From: a bacterium | Lineage (GTDB): Bacteria > Methylomirabilota > Methylomirabilia > CAVQYV01 | Assembly: GCA_043800755.1 (NCBI GenBank) | Contig: JAZDMQ010000159.1 | Span: forward strand, 1-37,261 | DNA: 37,261 bases | Direction of reading: 5' to 3' | Shown: positions 33,703-35,779 of the stretch, piece after piece | How positions within the stretch are numbered: the stretch's first letter is position 1 | How the letters are laid out: the number at the start of each line of letters is the position of its first letter | Notes under the pieces: generated by a model | Told to the model about the DNA's origin: nothing | What the model saw: only the letters and a program-made list of their open reading frames with translations | The model's database searches: none | Translations under genes and position numbers: made by a program

Positions 33703-34683
33703 ATGAACTACGTCAACCTGGGCCGGACCGGTCTCAAAGTTTCGCGGATCTGTTTGGGCACGATGACCTATGGCTCGAAACAGTGGCGCGATTGGGTGCT
33801 TCCTGAGGAAGAGAGTCGCCCCTTCGTCCAGCGCGCACTGGCATTGGGCATCAACTTCTTCGATACCGCGGACGTTTATTCCATAGGGGTCAGCGAGGAG
33901 ATCTTGGGCCGTGCCCTGCGGGATTTCTGCCAGCGCGATCGGGTGGTCATCGCTACCAAAGTGAACCAGCCCATGGGCGAAGGGCCTAACGAGCGGGGGC
34001 TTTCAAGGGCACACATCATGAATTCCATCGAGGCCTCCCTCCGCCGCTTGGGCACCGATTATGTGGACCTATACCAGATTCACCGCTGGGACAGCGAAAC
34101 GCCCATAGAAGAGACGTTGGAAGCCCTCCACGACCTGGTGAAGGCGGGCAAGGTGCGTTACCTCGGGGCCTCCAGCATGTATGCCTGGCAGTTCGCCCAG
34201 GCCTTGTACCTGGCCGATTTGCATGGGTGGAATCGTTTCGTCTCGATGCAGAACCATTACAACCTCGTCTACCGAGAGGAGGAGCGCGAGATGCTGCCCC
34301 TCTGCCGGGCAGAGAAGGTCGGTGTCATTCCCTGGAGCCCGCTGGCGCGCGGCTTTTTGACCGGGACCCGCCAGCGTGCCGGCGGCGGGGAAACCACCCG
34401 CTCCCGCAGCGATGACTTCGCTGCCAGCATGTACTTCAAAGAGACCGATTTCCAGATCGCAGACCGAGTTCTGGATCTGGCCAAGCGCCGGGGCGTCCCG
34501 CCGGCTCAAATTGCCCTGGCGTGGCTGCTTCGTCAGCCGGGAGTTACGGCTCCCATCATTGGTGCCAGCAAGATGCATCACCTGGAAGATGCGGTAGCTG
34601 CCTTGGAAATCGCATTGACCGACGACGAGTGTCGTTTTCTGGAGGAGCTCTATCAGCCCCACCCGGTATTGGGGCACAGCTAA
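33703..34683 (+). CDS. Aldo/keto reductase (YajO-like)
   Basis: LGRTGLKVSRICLG.M, FFDTADVYS, IATK, DLYQIHRWD, GKVRYLGASSM, QNHYNL.YREEEREM, PWSPLARG. Confidence 0.94.
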   Translation: MNYVNLGRTGLKVSRICLGTMTYGSKQWRDWVLPEEESRPFVQRALALGINFFDTADVYSIGVSEEILGRALRDFCQRDRVVIATKVNQPMGEGPNERGLSRAHIMNSIEASLRRLGTDYVDLYQIHRWDSETPIEETLEALHDLVKAGKVRYLGASSMYAWQFAQALYLADLHGWNRFVSMQNHYNLVYREEEREMLPLCRAEKVGVIPWSPLARGFLTGTRQRAGGGETTRSRSDDFAASMYFKETDFQIADRVLDLAKRRGVPPAQIALAWLLRQPGVTAPIIGASKMHHLEDAVAALEIALTDDECRFLEELYQPHPVLGHS

Positions 34684-34786: not shown

Positions 34787-34822
34787 AAGGGGTTGCGAAA
34801 TCGCAACCCCTTTTCTTTTTTT
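34787..34822 (+). terminator. Rho-independent terminator
   Basis: AAGGGGTTGCGA-AA-TCGCAACCCCTT followed by TTCTTTTTTT. Confidence 0.85.
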
Positions 34823-34986
34823 GCGGTGGACAATTAGTCAGTTAGGCCTGGGACCACTCCCCCATCGCAAATGACAAATGAAGATGCGCCCCTCCTTCCT
34901 CCTTCCCGCCCAAGGGTCCAAAGACCGCGCCAGCCATCGTGGCTTCCGTCACCACCAAGCTCTCGCCAGCAGGATGAAAAGAACAC

Positions 34987-35015
34987 TTGACAGAGCCACT
35001 TTTATTTCCTATAGT
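34987..35015 (+). promoter_or_regulatory. sigma70 promoter of ArsR operon
   Basis: TTGACA-17 nt-TATAGT, near consensus. Confidence 0.85.
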
Positions 35016-35046
35016 TAAGCAGTTGATAAAATACTTAACCACTTAA
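35015..35046. promoter_or_regulatory. Putative ArsR operator 1
   Basis: Imperfect palindrome TTAAGCAGTTGAT-AAAATA-CTTAACCACTTAA spanning the predicted transcription start. Confidence 0.7.
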
Positions 35047-35063
35047 AAGGAGAGAAGGGAAAC

Positions 35064-35477
35064 GTGAAGTTAGAACCCTCCGAATTGTTGAAGGTATTGG
35101 CCGTGGAAACGCGGGTCAAAATAATCGATCTCCTGAAATCCAAGGGCCCACAGGGCACCAAATATCTTGCAAAGGGTCTTAATATCACACCTGCTGCCGT
35201 GTCACAACACCTCAAGATATTAAGGCAAGCAGGTCTTGTAACGAGCGAAAGAAAGGGGTATTGGATACCTCATTCAATAGATGAGGAAGCATTGGAGGAC
35301 TGCCGGTGCGTGTTAAATGAAATTTGCACATGCGAGTGCCGAGAAACAAGTAAACTTCGGGAGAGAAAACCGAAAGATGGGAGCTTAGACTCACTAAAGA
35401 AATATGAAATGGAGCTGCGAAATGAGCTTAGAATCGTCCGAGAGAGGATAAGAGAAATGGAGTCCCGAAAGAGGTAG
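35064..35477 (+). CDS. ArsR/SmtB-family repressor with C-terminal Cys-rich and coiled-coil extension
   Basis: LKVLAVETRVKII.LL, ITPAAVSQHLKILRQAGLV..ERKGYW winged HTH; tail CRC..CTCEC plus LKKYEMELRNELRIVRERI. Confidence 0.92.
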   Translation: MKLEPSELLKVLAVETRVKIIDLLKSKGPQGTKYLAKGLNITPAAVSQHLKILRQAGLVTSERKGYWIPHSIDEEALEDCRCVLNEICTCECRETSKLRERKPKDGSLDSLKKYEMELRNELRIVRERIREMESRKR

Positions 35478-35486
35478 TTTTTTTAC

Positions 35487-35518
35487 TCAAGTAGTTAATT
35501 TATTGCTTAACTTCTTAA
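35487..35518. promoter_or_regulatory. Putative ArsR operator 2
   Basis: TCAAGTAGTTAAT-TTATTG-CTTAACTTCTTAA, 23/32 identical to operator 1, directly before the RBS of the small gene. Confidence 0.7.
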
Positions 35519-35542
35519 GTGGAAGGGAGGTGAAGACCTAAA

Positions 35543-35731
35543 ATGTGTCAACCAGGTAGGGGCCAAAGGGGGTTTGCAGCCTCGCAGTGTGACTGCAGCT
35601 GTGGATGTGGATCCTTCCGGCGCTTCATTTCTGCAAAGGAGCAACAGGAATGGCTGGAAGAATACGGAGACCAACTGCGGAAGGAGCTTGCAGGGGTAGA
35701 GGAGCGGATCCAAGAGTTTAAGAGCAAGTGA
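35543..35731 (+). CDS. Small Cys-rich coiled-coil protein (DUF5320-like)
   Basis: GGAGGTG RBS; CDCSCGC, RRFIS..E..EWLEEY...L.KEL.GVEERI.E pattern. Confidence 0.85.
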   Translation: MCQPGRGQRGFAASQCDCSCGCGSFRRFISAKEQQEWLEEYGDQLRKELAGVEERIQEFKSK

Positions 35732-35748: not shown

Positions 35749-35779
35749 GGGGGTGGGAGCACGCAGGGCTTCCACCCCC
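35749..35779. terminator. Hairpin between convergent genes (probable terminator)
   Basis: GGGGGTGGGAGC-ACGCAGG-GCTTCCACCCCC; U-tract is weak. Confidence 0.6.

Follow-up and report, generated by a model that had tools for sequence, protein, structure and literature searches.

A tailed ArsR/SmtB-family repressor and the small CxCxC protein encoded behind it: a candidate sense-and-sequester unit

Why would a repressor carry at its C-terminus a likeness of the small protein encoded directly behind it? The question is raised by a 37,261-nucleotide stretch of Methylomirabilota DNA (contig JAZDMQ010000159.1 of assembly GCA_043800755.1, positions 1 to 37,261; hereafter the window), in which two open reading frames (ORFs) on the same strand, arsR and a small partner gene, are flanked on one side by an aldo/keto reductase gene and on the other by a transporter gene that converges on them. 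An earlier note, made from the letters of this DNA, had pointed to the pair as a possible new regulatory module. Here, we compare the repressor tail with the partner, follow both through related loci, and ask which mechanism fits them best. Four features are central to the argument:

35064..35477, + strand: arsR, 137 amino acids, GTG start, an ArsR/SmtB winged-helix repressor with a C-terminal extension
35301..35339, + strand: candidate sensing site, C80 in helix 5 plus the CTCEC triad (C88, C90, C92) at the helix end
35385..35471, + strand: ArsR tail helix, residues 108-136, with a heptad pattern (AlphaFold2, predicted local distance difference test (pLDDT) 83-91), homologous to the partner helix
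35543..35731, + strand: small partner gene, 62 amino acids

Homology of the ArsR tail and its partner

Is the resemblance of tail and partner more than what any two short coiled coils might display? BLASTP aligns ArsR and the small protein with 16/48 identities at an E value of 1e-5. The earlier note had described this alignment as gapless, with 12 of 24 helix residues identical: the latter figure is confirmed by our own count by eye, and the former holds within the helix, although not overall, since BLASTP places a difference of three residues in the spacer between CxCxC and helix. The heptad positions L111, Y114, L118, L122, V125 and I129 of ArsR line up, by eye, with L38, Y41, L45, L49, V52 and I56 of the partner. 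Profile-profile comparison returned a probability of 97.4% (E value 1.1e-11) across 51 columns, from CxCxC to the C-terminus, when wider alignments were used, and 96.4% with smaller ones. As for controls, the score of 61.6 for the real ArsR tail compares with 17.9 for its reversal and a mean of 10.6 over 60 column shuffles (standard deviation 2.3, maximum 17.3). A hidden Markov model (HMM) of the small protein, run over the 5333 ORFs of 80 related loci, matched ArsR ORFs and small ORFs exclusively, and in six-frame scans of whole genomes the ArsR tail was its sole match in four genomes. On account of these controls and of the specificity of the HMM, we take the resemblance to reflect homology, not coiled-coil bias: judged by sequence, the last ~50 residues of ArsR, comprising CxCxC, a linker and a 29-residue helix, are homologous to the 62-amino acid partner.

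The opposite view, that the likeness is of the generic coiled-coil or Cys-motif kind and the adjacency without functional meaning, can invoke the shortness of the tail helix (~3.5 heptads) and the many weak coiled-coil Pfam matches that the small family attracts. The earlier note had itself named such bias among the threats to its reading, and the reversed and shuffled tails, scoring at most 17.9, contradict it. Together with the HMM specificity in both the locus ORFs and the whole genomes, and with the conservation of adjacency, operators and co-distribution (see below), this leaves chance likeness barely credible.

These comparisons draw on a survey of the best 80 of 268 stretches encoding an ArsR relative, taken from contigs of one genome per species; counts upstream of arsR cover 76 of these loci and counts downstream all 80. 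The alignments comprise 73 ArsRs (A3), 38 small proteins (A4) and the Lys-rich peptides introduced below (A5).

By domain score and predicted fold, ArsR is a member of the ArsR/SmtB family. It matches PF01022 with 47.5 bits (threshold 22 bits; E value 1.7e-12) and NF033788 with 73.7 bits (cutoff 55 bits), and profile matches to structures in the PDB (CzrA, SmtB, CadC, NmtR and others) span residues 5-89, that is, the DNA-binding core only. The AlphaFold2 model, built on the 73-sequence alignment (pLDDT 83.6), has the standard five helices and beta hairpin in the expected order (helices at 5-12, 15-27, 32-39 and 43-55, hairpin at 60-67, helix 5 at 74-87); behind helix 5 it places the Cys triad at 88-92, a low-confidence linker at 93-103 and the long helix. 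All 73 aligned proteins possess the tail, whose conserved positions are the six heptad residues listed above, Y114 being nearly invariant. The tail alone matched no Pfam family, and NCBIfam equivalogs scored far under their cutoffs (BigR 25.2 bits vs 155, CmtR 30.2 vs 150).

What could such a protein sense with? ArsR contains five cysteines, C80, C82, C88, C90 and C92. Among the 73 aligned relatives, C88 and C90 are invariant (73/73 each), C92 is found in 71 and C80 in 62, and C82 in 10; no further conserved Cys was seen in this alignment. The candidate sensor core across relatives is a C-T-C-G-C triad. Neither of the ligand sites described for ArsR/SmtB proteins, a CxC in helix 3 or at the N-terminus and Asp/His/Glu residues on helix 5, is recognizable here: the first 79 residues are free of Cys, and we noted no conserved His/Asp pattern along helix 5. 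The ligand site of this ArsR would be of a different, C-terminal kind. Precedents for such a location exist: ArsR of Acidithiobacillus ferrooxidans has three Cys after helix 5, and CmtR has a C-terminal Cys. As in these two proteins, the candidate ligand Cys are placed where helix 5 ends or further on, rather than in a CxC of helix 3, and a three-thiolate site is plausible; unlike in them, motif and spacing differ, and neither ars nor efflux genes adjoin the unit in the window.

The small protein likewise has five cysteines (C2, C16, C18, C20 and C22), and the earlier observation of five Cys per protein with CxCxC ahead of the helix is borne out by both ORF translations. Its Cys-rich N-terminal half, with the run CDCSCGC, is predicted to be disordered and to be followed by a helix at residues 31-61 (AlphaFold2, pLDDT 95-98). 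The partner had been called DUF5320-like. This is partly supported: the match to that family (PF17253, function not assigned) has an E value of 0.0049 and DUF5320 is the commonest Pfam match in the partner family (19/38 members at E<=0.1, best E value 5.2e-5), yet the score of the window's protein stays under the gathering threshold (18.4 vs 27 bits) and the ArsR tail does not match at all. DUF5320 and the partner family agree in being small, in the low complexity of the N-terminal half and in ending with a helix, although every match seen between them is weak. In the ESM Atlas, the small protein retrieved only clusters of small proteins that are unnamed or labelled 'DUF5320 domain-containing'. 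The coiled-coil family comprises 956 representatives at E<=1e-3 and 188 at <=1e-10, the top 150 being 39-124 amino acids long.

Operators, partner classes and co-occurrence

How is the pair controlled, and is its control conserved? The elements around the two genes are as follows:

34987..35015, + strand: sigma-70-type promoter, TTGACA-17-TATAGT, 11/12 matches
35015..35046, + strand: operator 1, a 24-bp quasi-palindrome (35015-35038) with an extra CTTAA half-site, abutting the -10 element; one mismatch to the pattern
35478..35484, + strand: T run directly 3' of the arsR stop codon
35487..35518, + strand: operator 2, before the small gene, best copy at 35495-35518; one mismatch to the pattern
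35525..35533, + strand: Shine-Dalgarno sequence of the small gene, GGGAGGTGA, strong

The operator pattern TTAAG-N6-CTNAA-N3-CTTAA was searched on both strands. With at most one mismatch it occurs upstream of arsR in 61/76 loci and between arsR and the next gene in 54/80 (73/80 when up to three mismatches are allowed); the background, 936,852 remaining bases on both strands, returned no match at one mismatch or fewer. In 69/76 loci, the 90 nt ahead of arsR contain TTGACA. The unit thus qualifies as autoregulated through a predicted inverted-repeat operator at its own promoter. A second promoter might be sought ahead of the small gene: the consensus has a -10-like ATAnT before operator 2 just as before operator 1, but no -35 element was seen there.

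Translation signals are unequal. A GGAGGTG-like site follows arsR in 66/80 loci, in 50/80 in the long form AAAGGAGGTGA, which matches the 3' end of 16S rRNA, and most arsR genes, inspected by eye, are without a good ribosome-binding site of their own. A T run as in the window, with at least six T within 40 nt of the arsR stop, recurs in 70/80 loci; it might act as a weak terminator, as a bend or in the manner of an UP element. In some loci this run is set within an A/T palindrome, GGCAAAAA/TTTTTTGCC. Contigs of a sediment RNA library span 34910-35241 and 35311-35729, the second of which bridges arsR and the small gene, though such contigs cannot prove a single transcript and the library may include DNA.

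What lies behind arsR elsewhere? A strict downstream scan (same strand, within 2.6 kb, ORF of 20-110 amino acids, C.C.C, strong Shine-Dalgarno sequence) found a small ORF in 74/80 loci and a single such ORF elsewhere in the same loci. In three more loci (L024, L025, L070), a small CxCxC ORF had been missed by the Shine-Dalgarno rule or the regular expression of the scan, bringing the total to ~77/80; in L003 and L005, the downstream scan found no small CxCxC gene. The partners fall into two classes. Coiled-coil proteins of 57-71 amino acids, the window's type, occur in 23/80 loci. Most loci instead encode a helix-less Lys-rich peptide of ~33 amino acids, with the consensus M-A-x-K-K-x-x-C-G-C-G-C-I-P-L-K-Q, a Lys-rich end (KKSK) and ~29% Lys, positioned directly behind operator 2 and a near-perfect ribosome-binding site (L010:4481-4579 and about 60 others). 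Exactly three Cys are present in 53/59 of these peptides. Both classes occur together in eight loci, and the CGCGC motif alone is what they have in common. No NCBIfam model was matched by the three Lys-rich peptides and two coiled-coil proteins tried, nor a Pfam family by the one Lys-rich peptide tried; peptides of ~33 amino acids may escape annotation. In six of six genomes whose only partner is the Lys-rich peptide, a free coiled-coil protein was not found, the completeness of these genomes not being established; their ArsR nonetheless retains the tail. The window's genome holds a single copy each of arsR and the small gene and gave no match to the Lys-rich peptide, an empty return that carries no weight in a search of this kind.

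The pairing itself proved widely conserved once checked as the earlier note had proposed. At least 268 genomes, each standing for one species, contain the unit. The best 80 were analysed and belong, by their record titles, to Desulfobacterota-type 'Deltaproteobacteria', Planctomycetota/Brocadiaceae, Atribacterota, Nitrospinota, Aminicenantia and Spirochaetota, as well as to Chlorobium, Zixibacteria, Calditrichota, Thermotogae and Acetothermia. ArsR had 2324 matches at E<=1e-3, not all of which need carry the tail; the best 120 measure 130-148 amino acids, with 68-100% identity over 91-100% of their length. Starting from the small protein, 48 metagenome loci were inspected, and ArsR lies upstream on the same strand in 35 of the 40 that are evaluable; of the others, six are too short on the upstream side to judge, two break off within an acyl-CoA dehydrogenase gene that precedes the small gene, and five are evaluable and without ArsR. 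In the window's phylum, Methylomirabilota, the small protein and a tailed ArsR occur in the same 2/251 genomes (G000 and G047) and are adjacent in both. In another class, the small protein was found in 3/401 sampled genomes. The unit is patchy, rare in the window's phylum and yet present in many others, which is compatible with horizontal transfer.

A candidate sensor and sink, and its rivals

What might the unit do? The reading that we favour, and to which we give about an even chance of being right, is a self-regulated sense-and-sequester unit with the logic of SmtB/SmtA, in which a sensor of a thiophilic metal or metalloid governs a metallothionein-like sink. Free of ligand, the repressor would occupy both operators, operator 1 against the -10 element of the arsR promoter and operator 2 ahead of the small gene. 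A thiol-loving ligand, likeliest a soft metal or a metalloid, Cu(I), Cd/Zn, Pb, Hg and As(III) being examples, would bind the Cys triad and, by analogy with other family members, loosen the repressor from the DNA. The small protein would then be made in bulk and in turn capture this ligand, again by way of CxCxC, with the helix of the partner bringing several copies together. The small protein could be an evolutionary copy of the sensor's tail, or the tail a fused copy of the small protein; given such copying, sensor and sink would have matched ligand sites.

Several observations are in keeping with this proposal. The very strong Shine-Dalgarno sequence suits a protein needed in bulk. A CopD-domain membrane protein (~165 amino acids; PF05425 40.6 bits vs 32.1) follows on the same strand in 15/80 loci (e.g., L014:4671-5159), which, together with the PF13801 context of one ArsR-less locus (L107, see below), hints at metal. 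Of the ideas in the earlier note, the one that fits the data best is a sink of the metallothionein kind that has its ligand motif in common with the sensor, and the small protein, there taken for the only output, does appear as the main output of a self-contained unit. The earlier note had also seen no efflux or detoxification gene with the pair, and no such gene is recurrent among the surveyed neighbours of related loci either.

Other findings sit less comfortably with a metal sink. Cys make up 8% of the small protein (5/62), which is low for a metallothionein, and small proteins matched no metallothionein family in Pfam or NCBIfam scans; the small protein may work like a metallothionein, yet would not be a member of that family. 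C80 is replaced by Tyr in 10/73 aligned ArsRs. The Pfam scan of 149 of the 201 other neighbours (the other 52, set aside by hand, were short ORFs, genes of near-duplicate loci, and the CopD-like and dehydrogenase genes that are counted separately) yielded one P-type ATPase, one ZIP and one CDF protein, two chromate transporters and two MerR regulators, and hence no consistent signal for metals, besides thiol/redox genes: AhpC/TSA in L004 and L006, DsbD-thioredoxin in L054, L061 and L064, and rhodanese in L031 and L061. The window has no gene of these kinds. An acyl-CoA dehydrogenase-family gene within the unit in 11/80 loci (e.g., L029:4714-5847, L044, L052, L057, L072) has no evident place in such a scheme; it separates arsR from the coiled-coil gene in four loci, and its best NCBIfam matches are all far under their cutoffs. 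Gene calls in the related loci are crude ORF calls. Finally, the hosts appear from their record titles to live anaerobically, and this would equally fit a sensor of oxygen or redox state.

This last point leads to the view that the triad and C80 hold an Fe-S cluster or form di- or polysulfide links, with the unit responding to redox state, oxygen or persulfide and the small CxCxC proteins acting as thiol buffers or as carriers of clusters or sulfur. Going by record titles, the hosts are of anaerobic kinds, namely sulfate reducers, syntrophs, anammox bacteria, Atribacterota, Chlorobium and the like, and the thiol/redox genes near some units would be in place here. Moreover, ArsR-family persulfide sensors that work through Cys pairs are known in BigR and SqrR, and BigR is a weak NCBIfam match of the window's ArsR, albeit one far under its cutoff. 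Against it, CX7CXCXC is not known as a usual cluster motif, the neighbour survey found no recurrent genes for Fe-S assembly or sulfide oxidation, and both the CopD-like gene and the 'Heavy-metal resistance' context point to metals instead. We consider this explanation unlikely. Less probable still is the decoy that the earlier note had placed first, a partner without a DNA-binding domain that pairs with the ArsR tail through the common helix and feeds back as anti- or co-repressor. Tail and partner are indeed homologous, in the same heptad register, and repressor and partner come from one unit. However, the coiled-coil partner is absent from 57/80 loci, which have the helix-less Lys-rich peptide or none behind arsR, while the tail is conserved in 73/73 aligned ArsRs, and the six genomes without a detected free coiled-coil homologue, whose completeness is not established, add to the difficulty. 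A near-perfect Shine-Dalgarno sequence would moreover imply bulk amounts, beyond what a stoichiometric regulator of a weakly translated repressor should need. When residues 72-137 of ArsR were modelled together with the small protein, the complex scored 0.22 and 0.21, under the mark of 0.32, which speaks neither for nor against binding. With most loci placing a helix-less CGCGC peptide behind the same operator and ribosome-binding site, a decoy is improbable as the general mechanism.

We prefer the metal sensor with its sink over the decoy precisely because the partners share the Cys triad and not the coil. Taken together, partners united by triad rather than helix, a tail kept in all 73 proteins, and six of six genomes in which no free coil was found suggest a conserved logic, wherein a CxCxC-sensor repressor controls a highly translated small CxCxC protein. 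Taken further, and as a rather speculative extension that we think unlikely to hold in full, one CxCxC plus coiled-coil cassette might be used twice, as a fused sensor and as a free effector, such that common descent would couple the set point of the sensor to the buffering capacity of the sink; mixed oligomers of sensor and sink, bridged by the ligand, might even tune or reset repression. With the Lys-rich peptides, this would amount to two new mini families of metal-binding proteins in anaerobes, and to a design principle, a sensor copying its target, not described for bacterial metal regulators.

How does this compare with known systems? SmtB/SmtA of Synechococcus is the founding case of an ArsR/SmtB repressor that targets a small Cys-rich metal-binding protein. 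In Anabaena, the ArsR/SmtB repressor AzuR is reported to control the metallothionein NmtA (PMC8790569). Both pairs resemble the present unit in combining a repressor of this family with an imperfect inverted repeat and a small Cys-rich protein as main or only target. They differ from it in their sensing site (His/Asp/Glu on helix 5, in contrast to a C-terminal CxCxC triad here), in lacking the additional coiled-coil tail homologous to the target, and in a target and layout of another kind, the small protein here falling outside metallothionein families and its gene standing in tandem with arsR behind two operators, rather than divergent or remote. The earlier statement that no characterised system has this design therefore needs qualification: the two pairs precede it in the general plan, and what we did not find described is the tail-target homology and the small families. 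Copper provides a further comparison, MymT and Csp being cytosolic copper sinks and Cys-rich storage proteins under Cu sensors (PMC11672702). They are likewise small or helical proteins rich in Cys thiolates, with genes that are in some cases under a metal-sensing repressor; unlike here, the regulators come from a different family, no sequence relation was found, and copper is just one candidate ligand for the present unit.

Literature searches on DUF5320 gave unrelated mentions only, and those combining ArsR with a small cysteine-rich protein or metallothionein in Desulfo- hosts returned reviews only. No account was found of a tailed ArsR subfamily, its sensing site, the partner families or the homology of tail and target, with subscription journals and supplements lying outside the coverage. 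Thus, the core is that of the known ArsR/SmtB family, but for the sensing site, the tail, the two partner families and the homology between tail and partner the literature we found has no description. Metal and thiol homeostasis is poorly known in strict anaerobes such as sulfate reducers, syntrophs, anammox bacteria and many candidate phyla, and a compact unit with clear operators and tiny outputs is widespread enough to merit testing. Identification of the ligand would define a new sensing site for the ArsR/SmtB family and two new families of small metal- or thiol-binding proteins, and supply those who build biosensors in anaerobes with a ready repressor, its operator and a strong ribosome-binding site. 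The homology of sensor tail and target, in turn, offers a testable case in which a regulator would gain specificity through fusion to a copy of the protein it controls.

Flanking genes and variant loci

The surroundings of the unit in the window comprise the following:

33703-34683, + strand: aldo/keto reductase gene (Pfam/ORF scan)
34787-34812: terminator-like hairpin plus T run, after the aldo/keto reductase gene
35749-35779, no strand assigned: GC-rich hairpin in the gap between small gene and transporter gene, 12-nt arms, 92% complementary, -30.8 kcal/mol, z -4.0
37065-35803, - strand: MOT1-type molybdate-transporter-like permease gene, convergent to the small gene

The earlier note had credited the pair with a promoter, twin operators and a terminator of its own. 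The promoter, with 11 of its 12 positions matching, and the operators, which are conserved, have stood up; the hairpin at 35749-35779 lacks a U tract and was not called a terminator by terminator prediction. We saw no link between the ArsR unit and the flanking aldo/keto reductase or MOT1-type genes.

Among related loci, further ArsRs were also met in the 149 scanned neighbours. In L005, the CopD-like gene lies directly 3' of arsR with no small gene between them. A CbiA/MinD-type P-loop ATPase is encoded 3' of the coiled-coil small gene in one metagenome locus (L114:663-1463).

Among the five evaluable metagenome loci without ArsR, other arrangements are seen. In L139, a TTGACA promoter and an operator ~150 nt upstream of position 2483 precede the small gene with no arsR in cis, which suggests control in trans. 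L107:884-2677 encodes an ECF sigma factor, a zf-HC2 anti-sigma factor and a PF13801 'Heavy-metal resistance' protein, followed by the coiled-coil small protein. Two loci (L137:2061-2680 and L140:1851-2596) hold distant relatives of the partner behind a PadR-family regulator, which has a Cys-rich N-terminal extension of its own, including a GCGC stretch; they look like a second case of a Cys-motif regulator beside a DUF5320-like partner.

A handful of copies are possibly decayed (L036 behind arsR, L092:1495-1686 and L135:1903-2341): ACG stands in place of the small gene's ATG in L036, ArsR is split over two frames in L135, and the small gene of G447 contains an in-frame TGA.

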